Part shown: piece by piece, positions 11,563 to 62,625 of the stretch
Position numbering within the stretch: the first letter of the stretch is position 1
Layout of the letters: each line of letters starts with the position of its first letter
Source of the DNA: Gammaproteobacteria bacterium
GTDB lineage: Bacteria; Pseudomonadota; Gammaproteobacteria; Eutrophobiales; Eutrophobiaceae
DNA: 64,000 bases
Direction: 5' to 3'
Assembly (NCBI GenBank): GCA_965205405.1
Contig: OZ242169.1
Span: 2,697,552 to 2,761,551 of the forward strand
Program-made: the position numbers and the translations under genes
Notes under the pieces: model-generated
Told to the model about the DNA's origin: nothing
The model's input: only the letters and a program-made list of their open reading frames with translations
The model's database searches: none

Positions 11563-11617
11563 GGGGACACAATACTTAATTTCGGGATACTGTCGGATTA
11601 TTAAGTATTGTGTCCCC
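11563..11617. repeat. GGGGWC-type inverted repeat (core ACACAATACTTAAT)
   Basis: 18-bp perfect IR GGGGACACAATACTTAAT / ATTAAGTATTGTGTCCCC; half copy near 24684-24696. Confidence 0.85.
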
Positions 11618-11648
11618 AAAATACCCACGTAGTCACGTAGTGATTAGA

Positions 11649-12200
11649 TCAGGTTGATTTCAGTAATGAGAACAATTCTGCCCGAGTGCTGGGGTTGGAG
11701 CGGAAAATTCCCAGCATGGCCGATGTTTTCATAACAGAATTCTGTTTTTCCACCCCGCGCATCATCATGCACAGATGTTTGGATTCGATGATGACAGCGA
11801 CATCTTCAACTTCTGTGGCCTTTTTCATTGCCCGGGCGATATCCATGGTGAGTTCCTCCTGGTTCTGCAACCGGCGCGCATACATATCGACGATTCTGGC
11901 GACCTTGGACAGACCGATGACAAACTTGTTCGGAATGTAAGCCACGTGACACTTGCCGACAAACGGCAACAAGTGATGTTCGCAAAGCGAATAGAGTTCG
12001 ATATCCTGGACGACGACCATCTCGCTCCTTTCCGTCGGGAAGCGGGCATCGTTGATTATATCTTCCAGGTTTTGCGAGTAACCCTGGGTCAGAAAACGCA
12101 TTGCCCGGGCCGCGCGTTGAGGCGTGTCTTTTAATCCCGGCCGGTCAAGGTCGTCGATTTCTTTGATAATGTCTGTGTATGCCTGTTCCATACTAATCAC
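11649..12200 (-). CDS. folE: GTP cyclohydrolase I
   Basis: [34 protein letters not shown] motifs. Confidence 0.95.
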
Positions 12201-12315
12201 GTCGGGTTGAATATAAGGTGCGTAAGTTTACCTGTTTTATGCGATAGCTGCATATTTTATAAGCACAGGACTGAAAGAATGGATACCTGCATTCCCGGAA
12301 ATAGAAGTACAATAT

Positions 12316-12389
12316 TTGGGGTCAGAGTAAAAATAGCATCACTGACAGGTGGTCTGGCTTATTGGCGGGTATTTTTACTCTGACCCCAA
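12316..12389. repeat. GGGGTCAGAGTAAAAA MITE/REPIN-like element
   Basis: 20-bp perfect IR; family copies at 35128, 47303, 54120 and 62583. Confidence 0.85.
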
Positions 12390-12392
12390 GTA

Positions 12393-14804
12393 TTAAATAC
12401 TCAGCTTGATGCCGACAAAACCGGCGCGGGGTGCGCCGGGACCGACAAAACGCGGGTTTTCAAAGCCTTCAAACGCCGCAACCGGAACTTCATCGGGTTC
12501 CTCGCCCAGCAAGCCGAAGCTTTCATAGTCTTCGTCAAACAGGTTAGTGATACGGGCAAACAGTGCGATATTGTCATTAAACTTGTAGTTGGCGCGCAGG
12601 TTGACTACGGCATAACCGTCCAAGGGGTCTAACTGGTTGGATTCATCGCCTCGCAGTACCTGGTTGGAGTTGTAAAGCACGTCAAAACCGACATTTAAAC
12701 GCTCAAACAGGAGGTAGTCGGCGCCCAACTTCAGGGAGTGCTCAGGCAGTCCGGGGATGCGGTCACCGGGGGAGACCCTGATCACGCGCTGGCCATCTTC
12801 ATTCTCTGCGGAGAGGGGATGGTTGCTGCTGCTTACTGCTTCGAATTCATCCTCAAATGTAGATTCCAGGTAGGTGTAAGCGATAAACCAGTCGATCTTG
12901 TCGGTTGAGCCCTCCAGCATGCCTTCAAAGCCAAGACGCCGGGTTTCATCGATGTTGGCGAACAGGCCGGTGGCGCGACCGGTCGACTGGAACAGGATAT
13001 CGTTGTTGTTGGTAGCGTGGAAAAAACCGAGGTGGTAATTAAGCAGCCCCATTGAACCGCGCAAGCCGGCCTCGAAACTCCTGGTGACCACGTCATCGAG
13101 AGGCGGGTCTGCCAGGAAGGCATTGGGCAGACGGCATTCGAATTCTATATCGTCTTCATCCGCGCCTTCTTCTCTGGCGGCAATGACGGCGCGGGTAAAT
13201 ACGCTGTCATTACAGGCAAGTTCGATGGGGGTCGGCGCCCGGGAAGATTCGCTGTAGCTGCCGTACAAGTTCATGTTGTCCGTTGCCTGCCAGGTGAGGC
13301 CGACGGCGGGATTGAAACGGAAGTAATCATGTTCGCCATTAAGTTCCGGACGTTCGCCTGACTGGTCTTCCAGATCAATCAAGGTGTTGTTAAGGCGGCC
13401 TGACAAGGTCAGGGTAAGCTGGTCTGAAATATCCATGACATTCATGAAATAAAAGCTGGCTGTCTCCGTTTCAGTTTTCAGTCTGGTCAGTGCATCTACC
13501 AGAAAGACACCCGATCCCAGTCCCTGGGTGCTCCGTGTCAAGCGATCCATATCGGCTATCTCTGTTTCGGAATTAAAGCGACTCTCTCCGTTGTAATAGG
13601 AAAATCCCATTATCAACTGGTTATTTCTGCCGAACAGGTCGTTCAGGAAGGATAACTGAATGTCGGTGCCGTAGCTTTCCTGCTTGCGCCGGCTGATGTT
13701 GTTGATGGCAACGATATCAATGCCGGACGGGTCGCCGTCGCCATAAGTTTCTACAAACTCCTCCTCATCGCCATTATCGCTGTCGTCATGACCGTTATCG
13801 TCATCATCATCGTCATCTTCTTCGACCAGCATCCAGGTCCCATGCTCATCAAATTCGACACCGAAATCACTTCCATCACCGTTAAATGAGTCAGTGTGAT
13901 TCTCGCGGTAGAAGAAATTGAAATCGACCTTCATGTTATCGGTAACGTCGTGACTGCCGTCCAGACTGACCATAGTCAGGTTATTTTCAGTGATGTCCGG
14001 CCCGGTAAAAATGGCGTCCCGATCGACGGCCAGCAACTCTTCCGGAATTGCCCCGTTACCTATCAGGTAGCTGTCGCCATGCTGGGCATTCAGGTCCAGA
14101 CTGGACATGGCGCCGCGCCAACTGAGGCCGCCATAAAAGTTGATGGCATCGGAGGCGGATTCATCACGCCAACCCTCTTCGTCGAAGTAATGAACGTTGA
14201 CGTAGTAACCCAGGGAACCGTTGTTGCCACCGCTCTCGGCTGTGGTGACGATGCGCTCAAAGGAACCGCCGTAGACTTCCAGGTTATGACCTTCGCTGTT
14301 AAAACCGTCTTTCATCTCGACAGACAGGGCGCCGCCCAGGGTATTCAGTCCGAACAGGGGATTGGCGCCGCTGATCAGGTCAATACCGTATATTGCCGAT
14401 TCCGGCAACAGGTCCCAGTTCACCGTATCACCCAGGGGTTCATTGATACGAACGCCATTCTGGTAAACCGCCATGCCTTGCGCCAGGCCCAGGAGCGGGG
14501 AGGAAGTATAGCCGCGGTATTGTATATCCGGCTGTAACGGGTTGTTCTGGGCATCGTTGAGGGTCACGCTGCCCAGGTTGTGTTTCAGGAAATCAGAAAG
14601 GCCCAGGCTCTGCGAGCGGTCAAGATCATCACTTGATGCGGATTGCACGTTATAGGGGATTTTTTCCACAGGCAGTCCCGCGCCCCGGGTGGGCGTGACA
14701 CCGATAACGACGATTTCTTCATCGACTTCCCGCGCGTCGGTAACGGCAGGCAGATAGCTGCCAATGATCAAAGACGCACAAAACGCAATACCTGCTCTAT
14801 TCAT
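12393..14804 (-). CDS. TonB-dependent outer membrane receptor
   Basis: Signal peptide, EEIVVIG TonB box, plug motif GANPLFGLNTLGGAL, C-terminal NLFDEDY...GAPR. Confidence 0.9.
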   Translation of the reverse strand: MNRAGIAFCASLIIGSYLPAVTDAREVDEEIVVIGVTPTRGAGLPVEKIPYNVQSASSDDLDRSQSLGLSDFLKHNLGSVTLNDAQNNPLQPDIQYRGYTSSPLLGLAQGMAVYQNGVRINEPLGDTVNWDLLPESAIYGIDLISGANPLFGLNTLGGALSVEMKDGFNSEGHNLEVYGGSFERIVTTAESGGNNGSLGYYVNVHYFDEEGWRDESASDAINFYGGLSWRGAMSSLDLNAQHGDSYLIGNGAIPEELLAVDRDAIFTGPDITENNLTMVSLDGSHDVTDNMKVDFNFFYRENHTDSFNGDGSDFGVEFDEHGTWMLVEEDDDDDDDNGHDDSDNGDEEEFVETYGDGDPSGIDIVAINNISRRKQESYGTDIQLSFLNDLFGRNNQLIMGFSYYNGESRFNSETEIADMDRLTRSTQGLGSGVFLVDALTRLKTETETASFYFMNVMDISDQLTLTLSGRLNNTLIDLEDQSGERPELNGEHDYFRFNPAVGLTWQATDNMNLYGSYSESSRAPTPIELACNDSVFTRAVIAAREEGADEDDIEFECRLPNAFLADPPLDDVVTRSFEAGLRGSMGLLNYHLGFFHATNNNDILFQSTGRATGLFANIDETRRLGFEGMLEGSTDKIDWFIAYTYLESTFEDEFEAVSSSNHPLSAENEDGQRVIRVSPGDRIPGLPEHSLKLGADYLLFERLNVGFDVLYNSNQVLRGDESNQLDPLDGYAVVNLRANYKFNDNIALFARITNLFDEDYESFGLLGEEPDEVPVAAFEGFENPRFVGPGAPRAGFVGIKLSI

Positions 14805-14978
14805 TTGCCAGACTTTCCCGGGAATTTATGGTGATACCAGGACAGCATGCTGGTAAACACCTGACAAATGTAATGTAGCTGTTTGATCTACAAGTGAATA
14901 CGGGGAAAAGAGAATAAATGAGCGGGAATTTTTCCCATACGCGGGTTAATTTATCCGCAGATCACGCGGTAATCTGAA

Positions 14979-15003
14979 GGGGACGGACTTGAAGTCCGTC
15001 CCC
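14979..15003. repeat. GGGGACGG palindrome
   Basis: GGGGACGGACTT-G-AAGTCCGTCCCC; related copies at 16760, 57128 and 57176. Confidence 0.85.
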
Positions 15004-15009
15004 GGGGAG

Positions 15010-15867
15010 TCACGTCATAGTCTTCGCCAGGGCAAAGATTTCCTCGGCATCGAATACCTGGTCATTACTTTCAAACAGCTTTGCGATACAGGCCCGGTGC
15101 AGGGCAAGTTTCAAGGTACCGAAACCGATGGCCCCCCAGCAGGTTTTGCCGTTGCGGTCTTTGCCCCGGTCCATCATATCGACCCCTTCAATTCCCAGGG
15201 GTGGTGTGGCATTGGCGTCGGCGAGCATTTCGATTGCGGGATTATTTTCCCAGTGTTCGCGGTTGAGTAGCTGCACCCCGGCAGCGCCCGTTGCAATCAC
15301 GATCTGTGCGTCTTCCACGGCCCGGGCGCGGTCTTCGTTAGTGGCGGCCCCCAGGGCAGTGACGTCCACGCCGAAACGGTTCTTTAATGCGTCGCAGGCC
15401 GTTTGCGCGCGTTCCTGGCCGCGGGAGCATAATACGACCTCGGCGCCTTCCCGGGTCAGCATGACGGCGGCGCGCTGGCCGACCGGGCCCGTTCCTCCCA
15501 GAATGACCACTTTCTTACCGCTAATCCCACCTGTGCTCATGAGTTTGGCGACAGCAGCCGCAGCCGTGGTATTACTGCCGTTACTATCGAGCATAACGGA
15601 TACACGAAAATCGGCAAAGAAGACCTTTTGCACGGCATCCAGCAGTTTTTCTCCGGCGACCATATCGCTGCCGCCGACAAACAGGGCAGTGTTTTTCTTT
15701 TCTTTCGGGCTGCGGGTGAATATGGCGCCTTCTACCAGTGCGCGCACGTTCTCAGGCGTGCAACCGCCATGGCCGATGACGTGGTCGGCTCCGCCATCAA
15801 AGCCCACCACGGAATCGAATACGGCGGCATGTTGGTCGGTATCCAGTTGAAACAGAAGTTTTTTCAT
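15010..15867 (-). CDS. mtdA: NADP-dependent methylene-H4MPT/H4F dehydrogenase MtdA
   Basis: MKKLLFQLDTD, DGGADHV, GAIFTR, DSNGSNTTAAAAV, GTGPVG; next to fch. Confidence 0.92.
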   Translation of the reverse strand: MKKLLFQLDTDQHAAVFDSVVGFDGGADHVIGHGGCTPENVRALVEGAIFTRSPKEKKNTALFVGGSDMVAGEKLLDAVQKVFFADFRVSVMLDSNGSNTTAAAAVAKLMSTGGISGKKVVILGGTGPVGQRAAVMLTREGAEVVLCSRGQERAQTACDALKNRFGVDVTALGAATNEDRARAVEDAQIVIATGAAGVQLLNREHWENNPAIEMLADANATPPLGIEGVDMMDRGKDRNGKTCWGAIGFGTLKLALHRACIAKLFESNDQVFDAEEIFALAKTMT

Positions 15868-16117
15868 TTTGTATCCTCATAGTGTTTGAATGTTGATTAA
15901 TATCGCTGAAAACGCATTGTCTTTTTACACCGACCTGATTGAATCGGCACTGAGCCCGGCCAATTTATTCCGATTCTGAGTGACAGGAAACAGAAGGAGC
16001 GGGGGACATATTCGTTGACGCCCATCTGCGTCAACTGCGGATAAATCCGTTATACTCTCCGGCGCAGTTTGCAATAATCGTCTATTACAATAAAAAAATC
16101 GGAAAGAGGCAAGATTT

Positions 16118-16741: not shown

Positions 16742-16759
16742 GGATCGTAACAGGGGTAA

Positions 16760-16784
16760 GGGGACGGATTTCAAATCCGTCCCC
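16760..16784. repeat. GGGGACGG palindrome between convergent genes
   Basis: GGGGACGGATTT-C-AAATCCGTCCCC. Confidence 0.85.
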
Positions 16785-16798
16785 GGTGTCCCAGCGTA

Positions 16799-17455: not shown

Positions 17456-17496
17456 TCAAGTCCGCGGTCATAGCATGTTTAAACCGACGGGACAGT

Positions 17497-20062
<2,566 letters not shown>

Positions 20063-20105
20063 AATGCTGTTCCGGGGGCACAATGCTTAATTATCGTGTA
20101 CTAAA

Positions 20106-21594: not shown

Positions 21595-21615
21595 TTTATC
21601 CGCGCAAGTGTAATA

Positions 21616-24659: not shown

Positions 24660-24718
24660 AATACCTCTGTTGCACTTTTCTAGAGTATTGTGTCCCAGAA
24701 TTTCGTGAAATACTCGGA

Positions 24719-25018
24719 TTAAGCATGAACTATCTCGCGATCACGAGACGGAATCTTGTTTAACTCATTCCCTATTTTCTTTTGTGCAAGACGCAGTTCA
24801 TAGCTCTTTTGCAAATTCAGCCAGAATACAGCCGATGTGCCAAACCATTTGCCAAGGCGCAATGCAGTATCAGCAGTGACGTTTCTGCGGCCGGCAATAA
24901 TCTGTGTGATGCGATTAGTCGGTATTTTAAGTTGACGCGCCAACTCTGCTGCGCTGATACCAATCTCGTCTAATTCTTCTCCTAATATAGTGCCCGGATG
25001 TATTGGAGTTCTACTCAT
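24719..25018 (-). CDS. higA: HigA antitoxin
   Basis: PIHPGTIL, ITQIIAGRRNVTADTALRLG, FWLNLQ. Confidence 0.92.
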   Translation of the reverse strand: MSRTPIHPGTILGEELDEIGISAAELARQLKIPTNRITQIIAGRRNVTADTALRLGKWFGTSAVFWLNLQKSYELRLAQKKIGNELNKIPSRDREIVHA

Positions 25019-25034
25019 AAGTGCTTACTTATCA

Positions 25035-25313
25035 TCAGTGGTAATCGGTTATCTCAACATTTTCAGGCCCATTCTGGGACCATTCAAAACAAATTCGCCA
25101 TTGTCTGTTGATGCGGATACTGTACTGGTCCAGCCTGTCACCAGTTAATGCTTCAAATCTGTTGCTTGGTAATACAGTAAGATCATTCAAACTATCCGCT
25201 GCATCGAGGATTTCAAGTCTCTTCTCTGCCTGCTTTTTAAATCCCTGAAAGGCCTTTACACGTTCACCTTCGGCAAAGGTTCGCGTCCTTTTATCGCGAT
25301 AGCTTTTAATCAT
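25035..25313 (-). CDS. higB: HigB toxin
   Basis: PSNRFEALTGDR...YSIRINRQWRICFEW...VEITDYH. Confidence 0.92.
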   Translation of the reverse strand: MIKSYRDKRTRTFAEGERVKAFQGFKKQAEKRLEILDAADSLNDLTVLPSNRFEALTGDRLDQYSIRINRQWRICFEWSQNGPENVEITDYH

Positions 25314-25769
25314 CTTTTTATTACTATACTAAAGATACGTGATACGTCAAGCATAATGCCCGCACTTCCCGCAGTATAGCAGTATAGGGTCAGACCAGCC
25401 CAGCCTGACAGAACCTACTGAATAATAAAGGGAAACTGTCATAAAAGACGTGCTATCCCAGGCTTAAACTGCGATTTTCATACGCCAAAACAGGATTTTA
25501 AGGAGGAAGTATCAGACGCTGCACAAGCAGACTACAGTGAATCAGCAGAGAAATGCCATCAAACAGGCATGGGGATGTTACAATCTCGATTTTGCTAACA
25601 AAAAGGGGGTTTAAGGAGAAATAACAGGCATATATGGCACATAAACTGAACTGGAACAAATAGTTAGGCAGGTCCGACCCTATCCTGCCAAAATCCATTT
25701 TATGGATGTTAGCAACGGCCCGGCAATTTTTTATATCCGGGATTCACGCAAGTAAATGAGAGGTGTGTT

Positions 25770-27880
25770 ATGCAAGACGATATCATTGTTCATTACCTGA
25801 CAGATGGGTATTGGCAACAACAAGGAGACACGCGGCGCAAATTCGACGTGCAGCTAGGCGGAACATTAACCGCAAACATCACAGCATTGACACAGGAAGG
25901 TCAGCAACTTGCTACTTGGGCGCTGGAAGCATGGTCTGATGTCTCCGGTATTAACTTCAGTTTCATCACTACAGCGGATGCTGATATTACCTTTGATGAT
26001 GATGAGTCTGGGGCCTTTTCTACTTCCAGCGTCGTAGATGGCGTGATCAGCTCTTCCCATGTCAATGTGTCTACTACTTGGCTGGAAGACTCCGGGGTAG
26101 GGATAGACAGTTATTCATTCCAAGCATATATCCACGAAATTGGTCATGCCTTGGGGCTTGGTCATCCTGGTCCCTATAATGGTGATTTTCCTGAATTTCT
26201 AACAGAAACTGTCTCATTTCATGACTCTTGGCAAACATCTGTTATGTCGTATATAGACCAGTCCAAGAATTTATTTTCACCGGGCAGCTATGCGCATGTA
26301 GTAACACCCATGATTGCCGACATAATGGCGATCCATTCTCTCTACGGGGCGCCAACCGATGTAAACGCTGGCAATACACATACGGGTACAATTCCAATAC
26401 GGGTACTTACCTGGATGAGTACTTCAGTTTGTGGACAGGAGAAGGCAACCCGTTTGTCTCTATCAACCTAGATGATATCCGCCAGCCGACGTTCCTCCAT
26501 TACGACAGCGATGGCGATATTGATATGGTCACACTGAACCGTAGCAGGGACACGTTTTATGTATATGACAACACAGGGACATCCACTAGCCCGCTCTTTA
26601 GCTACAAGGAATCTTTCTATTGGGGGGATCCCATCCAGGATTACGCCTTCGTCGATTTGGATGGAGATAATGACCTAGATGGGATCGTTGCCGACAATAC
26701 CGGTATCTATTTACTGGAAAACTCTCCTACCAATCCTGCGCCGGTCCTTTTGACAGCAGGCGCTTATTCTGGAAAATTTGAGTTCGCAGACATGGATGGT
26801 GACAGCGACTTTGATTTCATCGCAACGCTGGGAAACCAGGTTTTCTATACTGAAAATATCGGTACAGCAAGTGTCCCGGACCTTGCGGAAACACTTACTG
26901 TTTTCACACTTACCCATAATGTGCATGACTTCAAAATCGCCGATATTGATGCCGATGGGGACCGTGATTTTGTTGCGGTGGATTTGGTGGGTGGTATCTA
27001 CCTATATGAAAACACTGGAACATCCAGCGTGCCGGTTTTTACAGGGGATTACTATTATTTCGGAAACCCACTTGACAGCGCGCGTTACGGCGATTTGCCA
27101 CTTACAATAGTCAGAGATTTAACTTTCGTCGATCTGGATAATGACAATGACCTGGATTTCATTTCAATCGACAATTACAACACCGTTCAATACTTTGAAA
27201 ACATTGGTACAGCCGCAGAATTTAATTATGTCCCCACCAGCTTTAATCGTTCCACCACCCTGACCATCTATGATACGGACGGCATTGATCTGTTGGATTT
27301 GAGAACGGACATCTACGATCAATGGATCGACTTGAACCCCGGTAGCGGTTCCAGCGTATACAATCTGGTTAACAACCTAATTATCGCCCATGATACGGTT
27401 ATTGAAAAAGTCATTGCCGGGCGCGGTAACGATATTGTTTTTGGCAATACGGCAAACAACGTAATAAATGGCTTTTATGGTGATGATCTGTTGTTTGGCA
27501 ACGACGGGAATGACACGCTGAATGGATCGGCAGGCAATGATTTGCTGAGAGGTGACAGGGGGAACGACCGATTAATAGGTGGCCTAGGTGCCGATATCAT
27601 AGTTGGTGGCCTGGGAAACGATACGTTTGTCTTTAGCCCGGATGACGGAGTGTACGATGATAGAATTGTCGATTTCCGTAACGGGGACAACACCATTGAT
27701 TTAAGCGCATTTGACACCATCGATTCGGTCGATGACTTTGGATACCTCTATTACGATGAGACGGAAGTTGACACCTATCTTGATTTAACCGAGCACGGAG
27801 GCGGTAAGATAATTCTGGCAGAATTCACAGACAGCATCACTGCGTCTGATATTATATTTTCAGACGATGTAATGGCGTAG
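25770..27880 (+). pseudogene. Serralysin-like M10 metalloprotease with FG-GAP/VCBS-like repeats and RTX repeats, 1-bp frameshift near 26378
   Basis: HEIGHALGLGHPG and SVMSY Met-turn in 25770-26471; DxDGDxDxD repeats and GGxGND nonapeptides in 26228-27880; frames join at GNT|TYGYNSN. Confidence 0.8.
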
Positions 27881-28194
27881 CAACCGGCGGAATGGAAAGC
27901 CGCAATCATTACTAAGAAAAGAGCCTGAAAATCCTCCTGTCGTAACGTAACGATAGCTGTACGGCGTTTTCCGGGGAAAGGTATATCAATACATGGATGA
28001 TCTGGGGGAATTGCTATAAGAGGCATTTACCCTACAGAAAACTCCTCAGTTAGCCTTATCATATCTAACTATGGGGGATATCATAAAATTACTAAAGATT
28101 ACGAGTTATTATTAGCTTCAAGGTCGTGCTATGCTTTTGGGCTGTAAACACCATCTTATAATAATCGTTGAATTCAAAATAAAAGGGGAACTCT

Positions 28195-29283
28195 ATGCTG
28201 CCTGAATATATGAAATTTTTACTGTTCACGCGTATTGTTGTATTCGGTTCACTTATCTACTGTGTTGTGTTAATCCAAGGTTGTGCACCAACCACAAACA
28301 TCGCTAGAGGCTCCGCTGAGGATATCTTAGCTGAACAGCGCCAGCAACAGGCTTTGTACTTGGATACTATTTGGAATAGACAGGCACGACTGGCTGATCT
28401 TGCGTGGCCACTAATGAAAAACGGCACAGAGTTATGTGGTAATGATGTAAAAATTCAATTTGGCATTCTTCCCATCGCCATAGAGACTATTCATAAAGAT
28501 TATCGGGACGTTGCAGAAGCTGAACACCAGATAAGTGATCGACCTAGCGTTCTTCATGTTATGCGTGACTCGCCCGCAATGTTAGCTGGAATACAAGCAG
28601 GTGACGAGTTTATCAGTGTAGCTGGTGACCCAGTAGATTCTGGTAAAAAGTCTTTAACCAGTCTCATGAAACAGCTTACTACGGCGTCAGAAGCAGGTAC
28701 ACCAGTAGTTTTTGAATTAGCCCGTGTAGGTGTAACTAAGTCATATACAGTTAGTCCTGTGCAGGCATGTAGCTATAACGTATTACTTTCATCTGACGAT
28801 ATTTTAAATGCATTTGCGGATGGCAATTCTGTATATATCACTCAAGGGATGATGCGTTTTGCTGAAAATGATGAAGAACTGCAATTAGTAATTGCCCATG
28901 AAATTGCCCATAATTCTGAAGGACACGTCGATAAAAGTTTGGGTAATAGATTATTAGGCGCACTTGTTGATCTTGCAGCCGCCGCCTATGGTGTTAATAC
29001 GCAAGCGGCCTTTTCTAAAATGGGGGCTAGTATATTCAGTCAAGAGTTCGAGCGTGAGGCGGATTATGTCGGTATGTATCTTATGGCTCGTGCAGGTGTC
29101 AGCACGAAAGGAGTCAGTAATTTCTGGCGACTGATGGCAGCAGAACACCCGCAAAATATCAAGGGAACATATTCTAGCACTCATCCAGCAACGGCAGAAC
29201 GATATACTAATATTGATGCTGCTCATGACGAGATTCAAGATAAACTATTGAAAAATTTTCCGTTGCTTCCTGAGAGGAAATAA
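28195..29283 (+). CDS. M48-family metallopeptidase with PDZ domain, probable lipoprotein
   Basis: LIQGC lipobox, SPAMLAGIQAGD PDZ, NAFA, HEIAH, EREAD, STHP. Confidence 0.85.
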   Translation: MLPEYMKFLLFTRIVVFGSLIYCVVLIQGCAPTTNIARGSAEDILAEQRQQQALYLDTIWNRQARLADLAWPLMKNGTELCGNDVKIQFGILPIAIETIHKDYRDVAEAEHQISDRPSVLHVMRDSPAMLAGIQAGDEFISVAGDPVDSGKKSLTSLMKQLTTASEAGTPVVFELARVGVTKSYTVSPVQACSYNVLLSSDDILNAFADGNSVYITQGMMRFAENDEELQLVIAHEIAHNSEGHVDKSLGNRLLGALVDLAAAAYGVNTQAAFSKMGASIFSQEFEREADYVGMYLMARAGVSTKGVSNFWRLMAAEHPQNIKGTYSSTHPATAERYTNIDAAHDEIQDKLLKNFPLLPERK

Positions 29284-29419
29284 GAGCAGGCAGATTGCCG
29301 CTATTTCCCGCTAACGTCCTGGCCGATTGTGGGATTGAATGTTGGATAGCCTGAAACACGCTTGTAAATACGTCAAGAGCACTTACGGACTGGATTAGAA
29401 TCCCTGACGGCCCACCATT

Positions 29420-29836
29420 TTATGCAACTCTTAATATACTCGATAAACCAGGGTCAATAGCGGTGAGTAATTCATCAAATTTTTCTATTGTAGGAATACT
29501 TTTTCCATTTTCATAACGCCCATAAGAATTGGGAGATGACTGGCCCAACCTGCTGGCGACATCTCTGATGCTAAGTCCATTATCAATCCTTTTTTGCCGG
29601 AGGATCATGGCGAGTATCGGCCCTATATTATTGGTAATAATAAAAAAATTATTGTTTTGAGCAGGTTCAATTATGACCTTGAACTCTTCAAGATTAACAA
29701 CGAGTTCAATGGCTTCTTTTGCCATATTACAGGCTTCTTTTTTAGTTCTTCCTTGAGTAAATATACCAATTTGAGGAATGTCAACTCCCCATATTTTTTC
29801 GCCTGCTTTTTTTTCCAGTTTTCCTTCAATCTTCAT
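29420..29836 (-). CDS. hicB: HicB-family antitoxin with C-terminal XRE HTH
   Basis: TQGRTKKEA..MAKEAI plus HTH YGRYENGKSIPT. Confidence 0.8.
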   Translation of the reverse strand: MKIEGKLEKKAGEKIWGVDIPQIGIFTQGRTKKEACNMAKEAIELVVNLEEFKVIIEPAQNNNFFIITNNIGPILAMILRQKRIDNGLSIRDVASRLGQSSPNSYGRYENGKSIPTIEKFDELLTAIDPGLSSILRVA

Positions 29837-30023
29837 CAGAACTACTCTCGATTATTTTTTTGACCTGGTTAATAATAGCTCTTGCCGTACCTTGCCTGAT
29901 TTCCCGGTGTCCGGGAATGGGAAATTTATAATCTCTTATACTCCATATTTCATGGTTCCTCCCTTCTCTTTCAAACTTGCATCCAAGCTTTCCAAGAGCT
30001 TTTTCTAAATCTTTTTTCTTCAT
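29826..30023 (-). CDS. hicA: HicA-family toxin
   Basis: MKKKDLEKAL..LGC.FEREG.NHEIW...PIPGHREI...TARAII. Confidence 0.85.
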   Translation of the reverse strand: MKKKDLEKALGKLGCKFEREGRNHEIWSIRDYKFPIPGHREIRQGTARAIINQVKKIIESSSDED

Positions 30024-30034
30024 AGGCTAGTGTA

Positions 30035-30046
30035 CACAATATTGTG
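30035..30046. promoter_or_regulatory. Putative hicAB operator
   Basis: Perfect palindrome CACAATATTGTG just upstream of hicA. Confidence 0.45.
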
Positions 30047-30119
30047 GTCAAAGTCACAAACATGATGCGGCTGACGCACATTCATTACTTATGCCATTTG
30101 TCGGAGTTTTGAGGACACA

Positions 30120-30167
30120 ATTATTTCGGGACACCCATAAAATATTTTATGGGTGTCCCGAAATAAT
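30120..30167. repeat. 48-bp perfect palindrome of the GGACACCCATAAA family
   Basis: ATTATTTCGGGACACCCATAAAAT/ATTTTATGGGTGTCCCGAAATAAT; same core as the 19.8-kb array. Confidence 0.9.
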
Positions 30168-30326
30168 CAAGAAATTATATCTCGAATTTATCCTTAATTT
30201 ATGGATGTCCCAAATTTGCCTTGTTTATTCAGTCCCAATCCACCTTTCCGACTGCGATTATTCACGATAACTACATTAAAATGCAATATGATCTGTCATT
30301 CTTTCCTTTTAATGCTTTTTGTAGTA

Positions 30327-30412
30327 GGGAAACAGGGGGGAAACAGGGGACAGGCCACGTTTTCTCTGAAGGCTAAAACGTGGTCTGTCCCCGTTTTTCT
30401 GTCCCCGTTTTT
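30327..30412. repeat. GGGGACAG(A/G)CCACG inverted-repeat element with duplicated ends
   Basis: IR 30346-30363/30375-30392; GGAAACAGGGG twice on the left, CTGTCCCCGTTTTT twice on the right; half copies at 41471, 41775 and 41809. Confidence 0.85.
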
Positions 30413-30514
30413 CGGGCAGGACAACACAGTATTCGTATCAATCAACAATGGCGGATATGTTTCCGCTGGAAAGACGATGGTCCCTATGACGTTGAGATAG
30501 TGGACTATCACTGA
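30413..30514 (+). pseudogene. higB: 3' remnant of higB toxin
   Basis: Translates [33 protein letters not shown]; 5' part missing at the repeat boundary. Confidence 0.85.
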
Positions 30515-30527
30515 TGAGGATGAAAAC

Positions 30528-30830
30528 ATGAGCAAGAATGGTATGCGGCCGGTACACCCTGGTGAGATTTTGCGTGAAGAGCTGGAGGAACTAGGCATGT
30601 CGGCTAAGGCAATCGCCTGTGAATTGGGTGTGCCTCAAAACCGTATTTCGGACATTTTGAGAGGACGACGGGGAATTACTGCCGACACAGCACTCCGGCT
30701 GGCTCGCTATCTCAATACCACCCCACAATTATGGCTGAACCTGCAAAAAGCCTATGAACTGCGGGTAGCTGAACTTGAAGCGGGAAGGGACATTGCCAAA
30801 CGAGTGAAACCAAGACAGGAGGCTGCTTAG
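30528..30830 (+). CDS. higA: HigA antitoxin
   Basis: MRPVHPGEILREEL, RGITADTALRLARY, WLNLQ. Confidence 0.92.
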   Translation: MSKNGMRPVHPGEILREELEELGMSAKAIACELGVPQNRISDILRGRRGITADTALRLARYLNTTPQLWLNLQKAYELRVAELEAGRDIAKRVKPRQEAA

Positions 30831-31128
30831 TTCTATGGCACACGAAACGCTTTTTGTGCCCAAACAATCTGGAAACAGGGGACAGACCCTGAGTTATCCC
30901 CACGAATTTCAAGAAAATAAGTCAAGCAAAACAAATCATTACGATCTATTTATACGCTCGGACCCCTGATACGGTCCGTATAGCCAATAATAAAACCCAT
31001 ACAGATGACGAAAATTGATTTAAACATATTCCGGTTAGTACAATAAAGATACTAGTTACAAGGTATTTCAATCCCAAAGAAAATATCCAGGGACTACCTT
31101 TCGTTTCGCCGCTGCGGCTTTTAAAATA

Positions 31129-35127: not shown

Positions 35128-35216
35128 TGATATTTGGGGTCAGTGTAAAAATACAGTCGAATTGACAGGTGGCGCCAGTTTGTTATTGAGTATTTTTACT
35201 CTGACCCCAAATATCA
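35128..35216. repeat. GGGGTCAG MITE/REPIN-like element
   Basis: 27-bp IR with one mismatch; spacer shares TGACAGGTGG and TTATTG with the 12316 copy. Confidence 0.85.
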
Positions 35217-35255
35217 CAAATATCAACATATGGAAGATATTCAGGAAAAAGACAT

Positions 35256-41426: not shown

Positions 41427-41802
41427 GAATAGATACGGGCGCTCCCACGGGTGCGCCCTGCCACCGGAAGAAACGTGGTCTGTCCCCCATTTCACCCCCA
41501 GAGGGTTTATTTTTTAAGCAAAATAAGCTTTAATAGGCGGACAGCTATAATCATTTTTCTACTGAAGAATAATTAATGCGGAGAGTGTAAAGGTGAGTAG
41601 TACTAAGCAGAAGGGTCCTGCAGCGTCAAAAAGCAAGTCCCAGAAAAATAAACTGCCAGGTAATAAACAGCCAGGTAATAAACAGCAGGGTAATAAGCCT
41701 CAGAAGCCTGTAGACTATGGCGCATACCAAAAACGCGGGCTCTGAATCACAACCTCGGTGATTCAGATGATTTGGAAAAAACGTGGTCTGTCCCCATAAT
41801 TC

Positions 41803-42042
41803 TCATTTGGAAAAAACGTGGTCTGTCCCCCATTTCACGTAACACTCCCGCCCAAGACCCGGGCCAACATTGACAGGTTTCCCGTTTATCAGTACCCTTT
41901 GACACCAGGTTTTTGACTGTCGGTTGTTTGTCATCGGTTTGACAGGCAGGGATGGGTCATGATTACCTCGCCCGTCACCATAATGGCCAGGTTGGTTGGA
42001 GGTCTTGTCGGATGATGCCGATAGAGTTTTCTGTCGTTTCAT
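41803..42042 (-). pseudogene. N-terminal remnant of P4-like tyrosine integrase (arm-binding domain)
   Basis: PGHYGDGRG...L.VKP....SKTWCQR..INGK...VG.G motif; cut off at repeat element; just downstream of tRNA-Asp. Confidence 0.7.
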
Positions 42043-47207: not shown

Positions 47208-47302
47208 GCTTGACTCCTGTTTATCTGTTTTCCCATGGAGATTATTTTGCCACGCATTGATTGATTTGTACAAACGAGTTTAGCCACAGAGGCCACAGAG
47301 AT

Positions 47303-47388
47303 GATATTTGGGGTCAGAGTAAAAATACCCAATAAAAACCTGGAGCACATACCAAGCCAAGTGTATTTTTACTCTGACCCCAAATATC
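47303..47388. repeat. GGGGTCAG MITE/REPIN-like element
   Basis: 26-bp perfect IR GATATTTGGGGTCAGAGTAAAAATAC. Confidence 0.9.
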
Positions 47389-48234
47389 TTACCGGTCGCG
47401 GACATCAAGGGCGTCGCGCAGGCCGTCGCCGAGAAAGTTGAGTGAAAACAACGTCAGTGACAGTACCAGCGCGGGGAAGATCAGCAACCAGGGATATTCC
47501 TCCATGGTTTCCACCCCGTAGGAGATGAGCAAACCCCAGGAGCTTTGCGGCGGCTGAATGCCCAGGCCCAGGAAACTCAGGAAGGATTCCAGCAGGATCA
47601 CATTGGGTACGGTCAAGGTGGCATATACGATCACCGGTCCCATCACGTTGGGTATAACGTGCTTGACGATGATCTGAAATCTGGACAGACCCAGACTGAC
47701 AGCCGCTTCGACAAAGTCTTTCTGTTTCACGATCATTACCTGGCCACGCACGATACGCGCCATGGTCAACCACTCCACCGCACCGATGGCGAGGAACAGA
47801 AGGATAATATTTCTGCCGAATACCACCATCAGCAGGATTATAAAAATAGTGAACGGCAAAGCATAGAGAACGTCAACAAACCGCATCATCAGGGCGTCAA
47901 TACGACCACCCAGATAGCCGGCCAGCGCGCCCCAGGACACACCAATGAGCAGCGCGACGGCAGTGGCGATAAAACCTACGGCGAGTGAGATGCGGCTGCC
48001 GTAGAGAATCCTGGTCAACAGGTCGCGCCCGAACAAGTCACTACCGAGCCAGTGCAGCGCTGAAGGCGAACTGGGACCCAACTCAAGGTTCTGTCCCGAA
48101 TAGGAATAGGGTGTAATCCAGGGCGCCAGGACGGAGAGGACAATAAAAACCCCCAGGACGACTAATCCGAACATGGCCGGCTTGTTCTTCTTCAGCTTCC
48201 TCCAGGCATCCTGGCGTGGTGACGTGCTAACCAT
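47389..48234 (-). CDS. oppC: Oligopeptide ABC permease
   Basis: HWLGSDLFGRD, EAAVSLG, ESFLSFLGLG, GDGLRDALD. Confidence 0.88.
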   Translation of the reverse strand: MVSTSPRQDAWRKLKKNKPAMFGLVVLGVFIVLSVLAPWITPYSYSGQNLELGPSSPSALHWLGSDLFGRDLLTRILYGSRISLAVGFIATAVALLIGVSWGALAGYLGGRIDALMMRFVDVLYALPFTIFIILLMVVFGRNIILLFLAIGAVEWLTMARIVRGQVMIVKQKDFVEAAVSLGLSRFQIIVKHVIPNVMGPVIVYATLTVPNVILLESFLSFLGLGIQPPQSSWGLLISYGVETMEEYPWLLIFPALVLSLTLFSLNFLGDGLRDALDVRDR

Positions 48235-54105: not shown

Positions 54106-54119
54106 GCGTCAAAAAAACC

Positions 54120-54194: not shown

Positions 54195-54213
54195 TAAATC
54201 CATATATCTTTGC

Positions 54214-57071: not shown

Positions 57072-57096
57072 GGATCAATATAGAAGACGTATCTTA

Positions 57097-57247
57097 TCAT
57101 CTGCGGATAAATAATTTTCAACTCAGCGGGGACGGACTTAAGTCCATCCCCATTTCCCCATTAGTCCCCATCACCGGGGACGGACTTAAGTCCGTCCCCA
57201 TTAGTCCCATTATCTGCGATAATCTGCGTCATCTGCGGATAAATAAT
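57097..57247. repeat. Composite repeat cluster: two GGGGACGG palindromes between ATCTGCG-type repeats
   Basis: Palindromes 57128-57151 and 57176-57199; TCATCTGCGGATAAATAAT on both sides. Confidence 0.8.
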
Positions 57248-57260
57248 CACTATTCTCAAT

Positions 57261-58880: not shown

Positions 58881-58896
58881 GATGCAGGTTTGTTAT

Positions 58897-58971
58897 GCCA
58901 CAGAGGACACAGAGACCACAGAGTGGATCGAGAAGGCTGACAGATATTGTTTTCTCTGTGTTCTCTGTGGC
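58897..58971. repeat. CACAGAG-type inverted repeat between convergent genes
   Basis: GCCACAGAGGACACAGAGACCACAGAG ... CTCTGTGTTCTCTGTGGC; half copy at 47283-47300. Confidence 0.7.
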
Positions 58972-58992
58972 TCTCCTGTTTTTATCTGCGCA

Positions 58993-60096
58993 TCAGGTTT
59001 TACTCATCAGGTGAATGCTCTCGGCCAGCAGTGAGACGGCGATGTCGCCGCCTTGTTCGAGATGGTTGCGTCGGGCGACGTGGGTTGGCACTGATAAGTA
59101 GAGCATCTGGCCGTTATCAACCGCAATCGTGATGGAAGTTGTCTCTCCCAGGGGGATAAAATCATCGATTCGTCCTTTTACGGGGTTCTCTCGTTCACCT
59201 TGAGACGGCCTGTCGCGCCGGTGCAGGATAATGTTTTCGGAAGGGATGACCCAGTCTACTTCAGATTGAGGTTCAAACTCCGGGCGATAGCGGGTCGTCA
59301 GGGTGTGGTCATTCCATTTAATATGGGTTATTTTGCTATCGTGATCATGCCCTTCAATCTGGCCGCTGAATATATTATCGTGGCCGACCAGACCGGCGAC
59401 GCCGGCATTATCGGGGTGGTTCATGACTTCCTCGGGAGTATTGATTTGCAGGGTTTTGCCGTGGTGGATGACGCAAATCCTGTCGGCAATCCGGCGCGCT
59501 TCGTTCAGGTCGTGGGTGACGTGAATCACCGGCAGGTTGAAGCGTAGTCTCAAGCCGACAAGTTCGCGTACCAGTTTTCTGCGGGTCTGTTGATCTACGG
59601 AAGAAAAGGGCTCATCCAGCAATAAAACCCGGGGATCACGGGCCAATGCCCGGGCCACGGCAATACGCTGTTGTTGCCCCCCTGATAACTGGTGGGGATA
59701 ACGTTCTTCCAGACCGCTCATGTTCATGGTGTTCAGCAGGCTTTCAGCGATAATCCGTTTCTGTTTATTCCCGGTCCGGGTTAACGGTAGCATGATGTTC
59801 TGCAAGGCCGTCATGTGAGGAAACAGGGCATAGTGCTGGAATACCATGCCGATACGTCGCTGTTGTACGGGTAGATTAATACCTGTCCCGGTATCCAGCC
59901 ATTGTTCCCCATTGCAGAAGACCTGGCCGGAATCCGGGGTGTACAGACCGCTGATGGCTCTTAATATAGTCGTTTTACCGCTCCCGGAAGGCCCCAGGAT
60001 CACCAGGATTTCACCTGAATCGCAGGTCAGGGACACATCCAGCGGTATCGGCTGAGCCTGCTCCAACCGGACGCGAATGCGGTTAGCGTCGGTCAT
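58993..60096 (-). CDS. modC: Molybdate ABC ATPase
   Basis: GPSGSGKTT, LSGGQQQR, C-terminal TOBE-like region; in modAB operon. Confidence 0.85.
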   Translation of the reverse strand: MTDANRIRVRLEQAQPIPLDVSLTCDSGEILVILGPSGSGKTTILRAISGLYTPDSGQVFCNGEQWLDTGTGINLPVQQRRIGMVFQHYALFPHMTALQNIMLPLTRTGNKQKRIIAESLLNTMNMSGLEERYPHQLSGGQQQRIAVARALARDPRVLLLDEPFSSVDQQTRRKLVRELVGLRLRFNLPVIHVTHDLNEARRIADRICVIHHGKTLQINTPEEVMNHPDNAGVAGLVGHDNIFSGQIEGHDHDSKITHIKWNDHTLTTRYRPEFEPQSEVDWVIPSENIILHRRDRPSQGERENPVKGRIDDFIPLGETTSITIAVDNGQMLYLSVPTHVARRNHLEQGGDIAVSLLAESIHLMSKT

Positions 60097-60754
60097 TTTT
60101 CCCCAGCCGGTCAGTCAGAAAGTAGATGAGGGTGATGGAGACAAGGGAAATCATGAGTAATACCGCGGACATGGTTGCTGCGCCGGTATTGTCAAAGGCC
60201 TGGACGCGGTCATAAATGGCGATAGCGATAGTACGCGTCTCACCGGCAAGGTTTCCGCCCACCATCAATACCACTCCGAACTCCCCCAGGGTATGGGCCA
60301 TGGTCAGGATGGCTGCGGAGAAAATCCCGGGCCAGGCCAGGGGCATCTCAATTTTCCAGAAAGTCTGCCAGGCGGAAAGACCACTGCACCAGGCCGCCTC
60401 GCGAACGTTCAGAGGAATGGCTTCAAAACTGCGCTGTACTGGCTGCACGGCGAAGGGAATGTTAAATATGATCGACGCCACCAGGATTCCTTCAAACGAG
60501 AAAACCAGGGAATTGCCTGCTATTTCTTCATAGAACCTGCCTACTGGAGACAGATCTCCCAGACTTATCATCAGGTAAAAGCCTAATACGGTCGGCGGCA
60601 GTATCAACGGCAGGGCAATCAAGGCCTGAACGAAATTACGCCCCGGAAACTGCGACCAGGCCAGCTTACGCGCGGCTAAAATTCCGACCGGCGCCAGGAT
60701 GAGCGCAGTCAGTCCGGCAAGGAGTAAGGAAACGTTAAGGGCCTGCCAATCCAT
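60083..60754 (-). CDS. modB: Molybdate ABC permease
   Basis: LPLILPPTVLGFY, AHTLGEFGVVLMVGGN. Confidence 0.93.
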   Translation of the reverse strand: MDWQALNVSLLLAGLTALILAPVGILAARKLAWSQFPGRNFVQALIALPLILPPTVLGFYLMISLGDLSPVGRFYEEIAGNSLVFSFEGILVASIIFNIPFAVQPVQRSFEAIPLNVREAAWCSGLSAWQTFWKIEMPLAWPGIFSAAILTMAHTLGEFGVVLMVGGNLAGETRTIAIAIYDRVQAFDNTGAATMSAVLLMISLVSITLIYFLTDRLGKNDRR

Positions 60755-60773
60755 ATCATTCAGTCGCCGTCTT

Positions 60774-61529
60774 TCACTCGGCTAAGGTATAGCCATATTT
60801 TTCAAAAATGGCTGCACTGGGCCCGGATGAGAGATAATCAAAATACCGGACACCTTGTTCATCATGATCAGTAAGTAAAACCGCGTATTGGGTAATAGGC
60901 TGGTGCCAGCTTTGCGGGATTGGAAAGCTGCTTCCCTTGCCGGATAACAGCTCCAGCGCCAGGAAAGAATTGGGAATGATACACAGGTCGATGCTGCCGG
61001 ACAGGCAGAATTGCAAGGTTTGGGCAGCGTTTTCCCCCAGCAGCAGCTTTTTGTGATTCACGACCCATATCCCGGCACTGGTCAACGCTTCCCTGGCGGC
61101 CTGACCATAAGGCGCGTGTTCCGGGTTGGCGATAGCCATTCTACGGAAGTCCCCGTATTGTAATGTCTTAAGCACATCGGCAAGTGTTGTCGGCTGTTTC
61201 AGTTTCGACGTTTCAGGAATATACAGACTGAGGCGGCCATGAACCAGTGTTTTGAAGTCGCTTATCTCCCGGCCATTAGCGTGGATAAAGTCCACGTACT
61301 TCTTCCCGGCAGAGATAAATACTCCGTAAGGCGCGCCCTGAACGATTTGCCTGGCAAAGTTACCGGATGAGCCAAACGTCAGGTTGACTTTTTTTCCCTC
61401 TTCCCGGAAAAAAGTCTCACTTATCTCGCTGACCGTATGAGCCAGGTTGGACGCAACCGCTATGTTCACCGTCTCCGGGTACGCGGATTGGGAACACAGC
61501 AGCGCTAACAGGCAGTATAATTTCCGCAT
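60774..61529 (-). CDS. modA: Molybdate-binding periplasmic protein
   Basis: AVASN, FGSSG, IANPEHAPYGQAA, GENAAQ. Confidence 0.93.
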   Translation of the reverse strand: MRKLYCLLALLCSQSAYPETVNIAVASNLAHTVSEISETFFREEGKKVNLTFGSSGNFARQIVQGAPYGVFISAGKKYVDFIHANGREISDFKTLVHGRLSLYIPETSKLKQPTTLADVLKTLQYGDFRRMAIANPEHAPYGQAAREALTSAGIWVVNHKKLLLGENAAQTLQFCLSGSIDLCIIPNSFLALELLSGKGSSFPIPQSWHQPITQYAVLLTDHDEQGVRYFDYLSSGPSAAIFEKYGYTLAE

Positions 61530-61586
61530 AAGACAAACTATATCAGGGTATAATCTTCAGGTAAAAAACAGGTGGAATAATAAGTT

Positions 61587-61675
61587 GTCATTCTGGCGCC
61601 TGCCAGAATCCAGTAAGCCAACCTTCCTTATAAAGAATCGTTCTGTGACTGGATTCTGGCATTCGCCGGAATGAC
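61587..61675. repeat. CGTC-type REP doublet (REPIN-like)
   Basis: GTCATTCTGGC..GCCAGAATCCAGT ... ACTGGATTCTGGC..GCCGGAATGAC; spacer TTCCTTATAAA shared with the 23919 copy. Confidence 0.8.
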
Positions 61676-61715
61676 GGGTACGCTTCGAACACGCATACTA
61701 AAAGAGGGCGATGTT

Positions 61716-62576
61716 ATGATTTTATTCACGGGATTGACCGGTGCGGTCGGGACGGAAATAGTAAAACTGTTGCCGGAGTTTGGTATTCAGGCCAGGGGGT
61801 TGGTCCGGGACCCGGCTAAAGCGGACCTGATTAAGGCAGCCGGTGTTGGGGTCATCACCGGTGACCTGGGTGATCCGGTCGCCATCAAAGAGGCGCTACA
61901 AGGATGTGGCAAGGCTTTCCTGCTCATGGCTAACTCCAGGGAGCAACTGGATCTGGAAATAAGTTTCGTCGATGCAGCCCGGGCAAGCGGAGTCCGGTAT
62001 CTGGTGAAAATGTCGGCCAATGGGGCTAATTCCAATTCAACGTCTTTATTGAAGCGTTATCACGGCGATTCGGAGCAACACATCCGGGATTCAGGCCTGA
62101 GCTATACGCTGGTCCGGCCTAATTACTTCATGCAAAACATGTTTCACGTGGCTGCCGGCATTATCGATCAGGACAAGTATTTCATGCCCATGCGCGACGG
62201 GCAGGTGGGGATTATCGACGTGCGCGACGTGGCGCGCTTTATACTGACCGTCCTGACGAGCCCCGGACACGAAAACAAGACCTATGAAATCACCGGGCCG
62301 GAACTGGTGTCGTTCCATGACATCGCCGGCCAACTGTCCGAGGTGATGGGCCGGGAGATCCGCTACGTTGACGTCCCGGCGGAGGATTTCAAGGAATCAT
62401 TATCGCAATGGGTCCCCGATGACTGGTACGTGGAGACCGTCTCAGACATGTTCAAACTGACAGCACAAGGCCGCGGGGCATTGCTTAATGATATTTACAC
62501 CCAGGTGACAGGCAGGGCGCCGACGACCCTGCGCCAGTTTTTCCAGGATTACTCCTCATTTTTCGAGAAGAGCTAA
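61716..62576 (+). CDS. NmrA-family atypical SDR
   Basis: TGLTGAVG Rossmann motif, RPNYFMQN, IDVRDVA, YEITGPE. Confidence 0.88.
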   Translation: MILFTGLTGAVGTEIVKLLPEFGIQARGLVRDPAKADLIKAAGVGVITGDLGDPVAIKEALQGCGKAFLLMANSREQLDLEISFVDAARASGVRYLVKMSANGANSNSTSLLKRYHGDSEQHIRDSGLSYTLVRPNYFMQNMFHVAAGIIDQDKYFMPMRDGQVGIIDVRDVARFILTVLTSPGHENKTYEITGPELVSFHDIAGQLSEVMGREIRYVDVPAEDFKESLSQWVPDDWYVETVSDMFKLTAQGRGALLNDIYTQVTGRAPTTLRQFFQDYSSFFEKS

Positions 62577-62582
62577 TATTTG

Positions 62583-62625
62583 TGATATTTGGGGTCAGTG
62601 TAAAAACTTTGTGAATTTTTACACT
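62583..62625. repeat. Truncated GGGGTCAG element
   Basis: TGATATTTGGGGTCAGTGTAAAAA ... TTTTTACACT, right arm incomplete. Confidence 0.7.

Follow-up and report, generated by a model that had tools for sequence, protein, structure and literature searches.

G-run-headed palindromic repeats of a gammaproteobacterial genus as probable ends and gene-less derivatives of TIRtron-type Y1 transposase elements

We analysed a 64,000-nucleotide stretch of the genome of a gammaproteobacterium (Gammaproteobacteria bacterium, GenBank assembly GCA_965205405.1, contig OZ242169.1, positions 2,697,552 to 2,761,551; hereafter the window), whose spacers hold several families of palindromic repeats with arms that start with a run of G residues, and compared these repeats with those enclosing Y1 transposase-like genes in the same genus. 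The genome that holds the window (G000) is a single contig of 3.47 Mb with 52.7% G+C; relatives from the same genus are labelled G001, G003, G007, G008, G010, G015 to G017, G019, G020, G022 and so on, extracted loci carry the prefix L, and the coding regions of G001 are ~93-95% identical to those of the window. The original prediction, made from the window, had described five palindrome cores with one common head, which we call families A (its core 2), B (core 3), C (core 4), D (core 5) and E (core 1); families G, H and R have the same head and lie outside those five cores. A stutter, in what follows, is a partial copy of an element's own end lying upstream of that end. The elements of the window are the following:

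11543 to 11641: family E; arms 11559-11580 and 11600-11621, loop of 19 nucleotides; partial end copy at 11543-11553 and tandem 8-mer at 11626-11641
12311 to 12394: family A, long form; 25-nucleotide arms, 34-nucleotide loop
14979 to 15003: family B, simple hairpin (stem 12, loop 1) between convergent open reading frames (ORFs)
16760 to 16792: family B, hairpin at 16760-16784 followed downstream by a short partial copy of its 3' foot
19787 to 20035: family C array; eight direct units, then one inverted unit
25380 to 25687: family R miniature element of ~308 nucleotides; resembles both ends of the RAYT-1 element (see below) without the gene, left end stuttered
30120 to 30167: family C, perfect 48-nucleotide palindrome of two inverted units without a loop
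30327 to 30413: family D; arms 30341-30363 and 30375-30397, one tandem partial end copy on each side
35128 to 35225: family A, long form, between tRNA-Leu and tig; 9-nucleotide partial end copy on the right
41474 to 41830, minus strand: three solo family D arms in one orientation (~41474-41487, 41782-41795 and 41817-41830)
47303 to 47388: family A, long form; perfect 26-nucleotide arms, 34-nucleotide loop
54120 to 54194: family A, short (hairpin) form, plus an extra left arm
57128 to 57212: family B, two hairpins (57128-57151 and 57176-57199) with an identical 13-nucleotide tail behind each
62583 to 62625: family A, short form; right end lost, left-end stutter conserved

Inverted repeats with the predicted cores are present at all 16 of the coordinates claimed for them, and an inverted-repeat scan of the window, which found 29 pairs, recovers their arms; the 25 pairs listed include sites 11559, 12311, 19880-20035, 30120, 30341, 35128, 47292, 54120 and 57128. 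The predicted set was incomplete, in that it missed the family R element at 25380-25687 and the sharing of the head by families G, H and R. All five of the end duplications that it quoted exist, but only three are strictly tandem (11626-11641, 30327-30345 and 30393-30413); the copies at 11543/11554 stand 4 nucleotides apart, and the duplication at 57128-57212 follows each of two neighbouring hairpins. Two of the solo family D arms, 41782-41795 and 41817-41830, lie in a 35-nucleotide tandem repeat. An Rfam search of the window returned eight tRNAs and nothing apart from them.

The head is common throughout the genome. A census of perfect hairpins in the whole of G000 (stem of at least 11, loop of at most 80 nucleotides), of the kind that the original prediction had called for, found GGGWC in the stem of 525 of 892, and the most frequent 11-mers come nearly all from a handful of families with arms starting GGGGWCRG or its three-G version. 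With both strands counted, the word GGGGWCRG is found 1505 times and its reversed form 531 times, and the 16-nucleotide arm of family A occurs 377 times (187 + 190), against 0 for its reversed control. Altogether 2.8% of the genome consists of 11-mers with at least 25 occurrences, and the palindromic families account for part of this share. Crude ORF calling leaves no more than 10.7% of the genome free of ORFs, and 412 of 482 half-sites of family A fall in this extragenic fraction. The same repeat is also found in records titled Pseudohongiella, Pseudohongiellaceae or Gammaproteobacteria metagenome-assembled genomes.

The families differ in architecture. Family A comprises ~220 elements in G000, with 26-nucleotide arms and a loop mostly of ~35 nucleotides, besides its short hairpin form; family B and the related family G, the latter found outside the window, are simple hairpins; family C forms mostly arrays, with 180 of its 282 half-sites within 1.6-1.8 Mb of G000; family D has arms with a loop as well as solo arms; family H, also found outside the window, has arms with a loop; and family E occurs once in G000. 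Families A, D, E, G and H fit the GGGGWSAS head known from TIRtrons, whose genes, termed TIRYTs, resemble those for the transposases (RAYTs) associated with repetitive extragenic palindromic (REP) sequences; C and R fit it with a run of three Gs, and a repeat type of G022 departs from it at position 8. As predicted, the tags of described REPs are lacking: neither GT[AG]G nor CGTC appears at the hairpin foot when the flanks of families A, B, C, D, G and H are profiled. Family A does show one trait of REPINs (REP doublets that form hairpins), namely an inverted doublet that makes one long hairpin with co-varying arms.

An all-ORF search of G000 found two intact genes for Y1 (HUH) transposase-like proteins and one fragment, all outside the window. 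RAYT-1 (G000:C1:2384464-2385258; 261 amino acids) lies between inverted family R repeats with stuttered outer flanks, and RAYT-2 (G000:C1 1668518-1669501; 321 amino acids) has family C arrays on both sides. The fragment, a degraded RAYT-1-like gene with an adjoining family R end, lies at G000:C1:2815208-2815606, 53.7 kb past the end of the window. RAYT-1 scores 33.9 bits on Pfam PF01797 (Y1_Tnp), for which the cut-off is 23; its best NCBIfam match is REP_Tyr_transpos (REP-associated tyrosine transposase, NF047646), and residues N58, H59, H61, Y119 and N123 are invariant across 15 paralogues. Because a sequence search of the PDB with RAYT-1 returned nothing significant, we searched by fold, using an AlphaFold model with a mean predicted local distance difference test score of 70.4. 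The top PDB match is 4ER8_A (E 1.3e-7, template modelling score 0.70 over the target, rmsd 2.9 over 145 columns), which is E. coli TnpA-REP bound to a REP hairpin, followed by the ISDra2, IS608 and IS200 transposases. RAYT-1 has the motifs NHIH, WE and YIDLNM and a C-terminal tail, and RAYT-2 the motifs NHYH, WE and YVELNP; by these motifs and the protein lengths, RAYT-1 stands near subclass 2.1 of the Y1 enzymes and RAYT-2 near 2.3.

We then surveyed 28 RAYT-like loci in 15 genomes of the genus, together with a protein tree. Inverted GGGGW-headed repeats enclose the gene in 28 of 28, and the type of repeat follows the protein clade, which is the co-occurrence that the original prediction had proposed to look for. 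The flanking repeats are of family C at 12 loci, of family H at four and of a related type at one, of family R at three, of the short form of family A, a sister type of A and family E at two each, and of family B/G and a further type at one each, so that four of the five predicted cores (1, 2, 3 and 4) have a flanked enzyme. The prediction of one nuclease family behind the shared head therefore holds in that the enzymes are of the HUH/Y1 RAYT/TIRYT type, but they are diverged paralogues with a different core for each, and G000 lacks most of them. Family C stands on both sides of every subclass-2.3-like Y1 gene examined (12/12 loci), and G010 has four copies of the 2.3-type gene. The H-type proteins, which have a C-terminal helix-turn-helix-like tail, are nearly identical in G010, G015, G001 and G017 (L126, L127, L129 and L144; branch lengths 0.004-0.02). 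Because the housekeeping genes of these four carriers differ by 10-20%, the near identity of the proteins suggests that the H-type RAYT spread horizontally, and recently.

Several elements of the window can be matched to such flanked genes. The arms of family E enclose an intact 228-amino-acid RAYT-like gene in G003 (L141) and G001 (L142), and the family E element at 11543-11641 is, on sequence grounds, the ends of a TIRtron that has lost its gene. The block at 25380-25687 matches both flanks of RAYT-1 (L001) and recurs in at least 14 copies in G000, at 69-92% identity, and in at least 12 in G001; judged by these matches, it is a gene-less version of the RAYT-1 unit. In G008 and G019 it is the short form of family A that stands on either side of the A-type RAYT genes.

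The palindromic copies are extragenic, dispersed, in some cases identical, and present or absent at orthologous sites. In G000, 17 of 182 long family-A copies have an inner region identical to that of a copy at another locus, and two clusters of near-identical copies, with 14 and 9 members, are scattered in either orientation. The window and G001 have four sites in common: the family E element; the family C array (8 units in G000 vs 5 in G001); one solo family D arm (41474-41487); and the family A site at 62583, where G001 has a complete element. At 12316, 14979, 47303, 54120, 57128 and 58897, G001 has other repeat families or a cassette, and G015 shows a similar turnover at the spacers of the window. 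Thus the G001 spacer orthologous to 12311-12394 holds a different palindromic family, those of 14979 hold other repeats in G001 and G015, those of 47303 a ~430-nucleotide cassette in both genomes, and neither has the family B hairpins of 57128-57212; G015 and G007 lack the family A element of 35128 in the corresponding spacer. As the prediction had expected, the repeats are not fixed orthologous terminators, since the spacers of sister species hold other families or none.

Family H lends itself to the comparison of filled and empty sites that the prediction had suggested. We queried ten of its sites in relatives; one was rearranged, and all nine that could be analysed are empty in at least one relative, although none is a simple insertion. 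G015 has five of the nine, with the loop inverted in four of those, and G001 has only one, despite flanks that are 91-98% identical to those of G000. At one site common to G000 and G015, the 98-nucleotide element is 100% identical and its flanks 88%. No direct target duplication was found at the ends of A, H or other families. At L164 ~1560-1700 (G000:C1 ~1563260-1563400), a family H element lies inside another palindromic pair, and the whole unit is bounded by a 7-nucleotide direct repeat; in the G001 counterpart the two 7-mers stand only 7 nucleotides apart, an arrangement that may be the footprint of an excision or insertion.

The ends of the elements are built in a regular way. The family A palindrome reaches exactly 7 nucleotides outside the G-run: covariation between the arms is strong to -7 and at chance level at -8 to -10, and at arm position 8 the variants are symmetric in 25 of 26 cases, where 1.0 was expected. 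Stutters occur at 109 of 442 family-A ends. Their outer boundary is nearly fixed, with 80 of 133 partial copies starting at -8 to -6 (mode -7), and their inner ends are spread from +1 to +20. Depending on the family, 16-56% of ends are stuttered, against 23 of 299 headless hairpins, which is a 2- to 7-fold difference, and six nested partial copies lie upstream of an intact RAYT gene (L141, G003). Because the stutter at 62583 is conserved in the separately assembled G001, and stutters of the same kind occur in 8 other genomes, they are not assembly artefacts, in line with the prediction; the stutter at 11543 has a looser counterpart in G001. In family H, the outer 4-5 nucleotides vary between copies and are symmetric within each copy, and 17 of 21 copies have at least 6 symmetric nucleotides past the anchor used, which is 5 past the G-run. 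In five filled/empty comparisons, the outer flank on one side of the family H element matches native sequence, and in two pairs of orthologous elements from G000 and G015 the members differ symmetrically next to the G-run. A simple 3' tail is present on only 13 of 126 B/G hairpins.

Abundance of a repeat and presence of its enzyme do not always go together. In G000, a resident single-copy cognate RAYT flanked by the family, as known for REPINs, was found for families C and R and not for A, B, D, G and H. Two genomes only, G008 and G019, were found to have A-type genes (the family-A 16-mer is found there 230 and 91 times), and four, namely G010, G015, G001 and G017, to have H-type genes. Half-sites of family A nevertheless number in the tens to hundreds in each of 14 genomes (15 with G007, which has 13), and family H is present in 17. 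How abundant family A or family H is does not correlate with the presence of its cognate gene across the surveyed genomes. The six genomes without any 2.1-type match have 0-3 family-A and no family-H half-sites. Families A, B, D, G and H may have been orphaned recently, or may be moved in trans by resident enzymes through the common head.

Together, these data lead us to conclude, with a probability of roughly 0.85, that the sites in the window are copies of at least five families resembling REPs, REPINs or miniature inverted-repeat transposable elements, and represent the cognate ends or the gene-less derivatives of TIRtron-type RAYT/TIRYT elements. A Y1 enzyme would recognise the G-run head at the foot of the hairpin and nick ~7 nucleotides outside it, and the copies would spread by way of single-stranded intermediates, like those of IS200/IS605 and E. 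coli TnpA-REP. Because the outer end of the stutters is fixed and the inner end variable, we tentatively attribute them to nicking at the outer boundary, limited strand-displacement synthesis over a few to ~25 nucleotides, and a final resealing in which the lengthened 3' end is joined again to the 5' end held by the enzyme, an account that we hold possible rather than probable. A broader proposal, which we regard as doubtful, would make stutters and symmetric flanks scars of a single TIRYT cycle, have orphan families mobilised in trans, and give the 2.3-type enzymes an array family of their own. The duplex form of such a cycle would leave tandem partial end copies with a fixed outer boundary, and its hairpin form an inverted copy of a few native flank bases.

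Several findings weigh against the TIRtron interpretation. RAYT-2 scores 21.7 bits on PF01797, just under the cut-off of 23, and both proteins miss the equivalog cut-off of 80 for NF047646 (RAYT-1 66.6 bits, RAYT-2 43.2 bits). Family B departs from GGGGWSAS at position 7, and none of the 28 loci has a RAYT with ends of family D. None of the filled/empty pairs at the nine family-H sites shows a clean, scar-free insertion; native bases are often replaced or deleted. In G000 no cognate enzyme was found for families A, B, D, G and H, and G020, a single contig rated 97% complete, has 140 family-A half-sites and no 2.1-type gene. The side on which stutters lie has no replichore bias (left:right 10:15 vs 15:12). 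The missing enzymes and the missing bias would also suit a view in which the orphan families are immobile fossils and the stutters scars of replication slippage or palindrome instability that involve no nuclease, as would the persistence of orthologous copies across species and the deletions around hairpins in G001. We consider that view unlikely, though not to be dismissed lightly: slippage does not predict the sharp outer boundary at -7, the junctions between partial and full copies have no consistent microhomology, stutters also occur beside intact RAYT genes, and the 17 family-A copies with identical inner regions lie at distant loci. Somewhat harder to credit is an origin of the stutters and the copy-specific symmetric flanks in nested insertion, with an element entering the arm or loop centre of a resident hairpin whose remainder was later deleted. 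Nesting does occur, as in G016, where one family-H element sits in the exact centre of another family's hairpin, in the family-H element inside a 9-mer-array element at 1847820, and in a family-B hairpin inside a family-A loop; yet nearly all stuttered copies lack the rest of the presumed resident element, and their inner end points scatter over 20 positions, where a Y1 enzyme would be expected to choose a defined target.

REPs are known to act as terminators, and some B/G hairpins may serve in this way, since 84 of the 94 extragenic ones face the 3' end of a gene (median distance 34 nucleotides) and 43 of 126 have a T-run on one side. That the hairpins are nothing but intrinsic terminators or regulatory hairpins fixed in place is, by contrast, very improbable and already contradicted as a sole explanation: two-thirds of the B/G hairpins have no T-run, the same spacer holds different families in sister species, there are hundreds of near-identical copies, and copies flank transposase genes. 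Still less can be said for a derivation of the elements from a DDE transposon with G-run-headed ends, to which we give hardly any weight. The long terminal inverted repeats with their G-run head would fit it, and such ends may resemble those of the Tn3 family, but no direct target duplication was seen, the flanks are inverted rather than direct, and the genes enclosed by the repeats are those of Y1 enzymes at 28 of 28 loci.

To our knowledge, there is no direct observation of REP and REPIN elements being copied in vivo, and the TIRYT branch has hardly been taken up again in the literature searched. This genus offers a natural laboratory, in which many diverged enzyme-repeat pairs stand side by side and some genomes have hundreds of copies and no cognate enzyme. 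An exact nick position can be predicted from the end scars, which, if read correctly, would be the first footprint left in vivo by a RAYT-type enzyme and would record both the place and the manner in which it processes its elements; a common G-run head would, if so used, let one resident enzyme move orphan families in trans. The family C arrays contradict a published negative on subclass 2.3 and give that subclass a candidate substrate. Where spacers turn over, and at one synteny breakpoint at least, the repeats are also present, which makes them relevant to the assembly and annotation of these genomes.

Further observations concern the neighbourhood of the elements. The family E element of G001 adjoins sequence that corresponds to window 6583-6910, and because of this junction we take the block 6910-11555, with selB and tRNA-Sec, to be an indel bounded by the family E element. 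Synteny with G001 stops at ~41486, just past the solo family D arm, and G001 is joined there to an inverted copy of window 25121-6583. The region ~24700-31000, which follows a cluster of four tRNA genes, has 41-47% G+C, holds ORFs for regulators of the helix-turn-helix type together with the family R miniature and the C and D elements, and is for the most part not found in G001; it is probably a genomic island. A perfect loop-less palindrome of 34 nucleotides (20029-20062) directly follows the family C array and has no core in common with the other families.

Other palindromic families share these spacers. The longest inverted repeat of the window (61587-61675, 43-nucleotide arms) belongs to a separate family with a CGTC-like tag at its start, arrays of which occupy the spacer matching window 54120 in G001 and G015. 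An abundant headless family consists of inverted arrays of 9-nucleotide units around a short loop (window 47285-47302 and 58897-58971); its two-unit pattern has ~281 matches in G000, 83% of them outside ORF calls, and the same spacers in G001 and G015 hold an analogous array family with a different 9-mer. The ~430-nucleotide cassette is bounded by inverted 9-mer arrays and apparently has a small ORF (G001 L139 ~11980-12480 and L140 ~10575-11013), whose motif presumably resembles that of the 'GxxExxY' protein family; in G015 it lies in the spacer matching window 47257-47408. The sites that the cassette occupies hold family A or 9-mer-array elements in G000.

Among known systems, IS200/IS605 elements (IS608, ISDra2) resemble those described here in a Y1 HUH enzyme that acts on hairpins, in cuts at a fixed distance (which we infer for the present elements), in the lack of direct target duplication and in the existence of gene-less derivatives. 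They differ in that the present ends are symmetric inverted repeats instead of two different subterminal hairpins, and no tnpB accompanies them; the defined target sequence expected of IS200/IS605 was not found at the nine filled/empty family-H sites. The REP/REPIN-RAYT systems (E. coli TnpA-REP, 4ER8; Pseudomonas REPINs, Bertels & Rainey 2011), as far as the parts of these sources consulted go, share the fold, the extragenic hairpins or inverted doublets, the co-varying arms and the flanking of each enzyme by its own family. The present repeats have a G-run head and not GT[AG]G, however, and the present enzymes are longer, some of them behaving more like those of insertion sequences (the H-type in four species, the 2.3-type with four copies in G010).

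TIRYTs have been equated with TnpAY1 subclass 2.1 (Quentin et al. 2018, PMC6006769). In the portion of that paper drawn on here, RAYT-1 agrees with this subclass in its motifs, its length of 261 amino acids and its C-terminal tail, as do the H-type proteins in their helix-turn-helix-like tail, and RAYT-2 agrees with subclass 2.3 in motifs and in its length of 321 amino acids. The same portion reports REP-like structures to be absent beside genes of subclass 2.1 or 2.3, whereas family C arrays flank the 2.3-like gene at 12 of 12 loci here. Flanking 16-mers of RAYT group 1, which corresponds to subclasses 2.1/2.3, are given as occurring ~12 times per genome in the section used of Bertels et al. 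(2017, PMC5581495), against 230 and 91 times for the family-A 16-mer.

The closest match is the TIRtrons, RAYT-like 'TIRYT' genes flanked by inverted repeats that share GGGGWSAS and form genomic families of singles, dimers and clusters termed 'moderately abundant' in the part of the description available (Di Nocera, De Gregorio & Rocco 2013, PMC3733652). They have in common with the present elements the Y1 genes enclosed by inverted repeats, the GGGGWSAS head, the dispersed families and the lack of a GTAG or CGTC tag. They differ in that at least nine families occur here in one genus, that ~220 family-A elements in 3.47 Mb amount to REPIN scale, and that several families have no resident enzyme; the available part of the 2013 account contains neither stuttered ends nor a fixed 7-nucleotide outer segment. 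Because PMC3733652, which defined the GTAG and CGTC tags, already describes RAYT-like genes flanked by GGGGWSAS repeats, and PMC6006769 assigns them to subclass 2.1, the system is known in kind, and the suggestion that it was possibly undescribed falls. Measured against those parts of the literature, what is possibly new is its scale, the family C arrays at 12 of 12 2.3-like loci and the anatomy of the ends.

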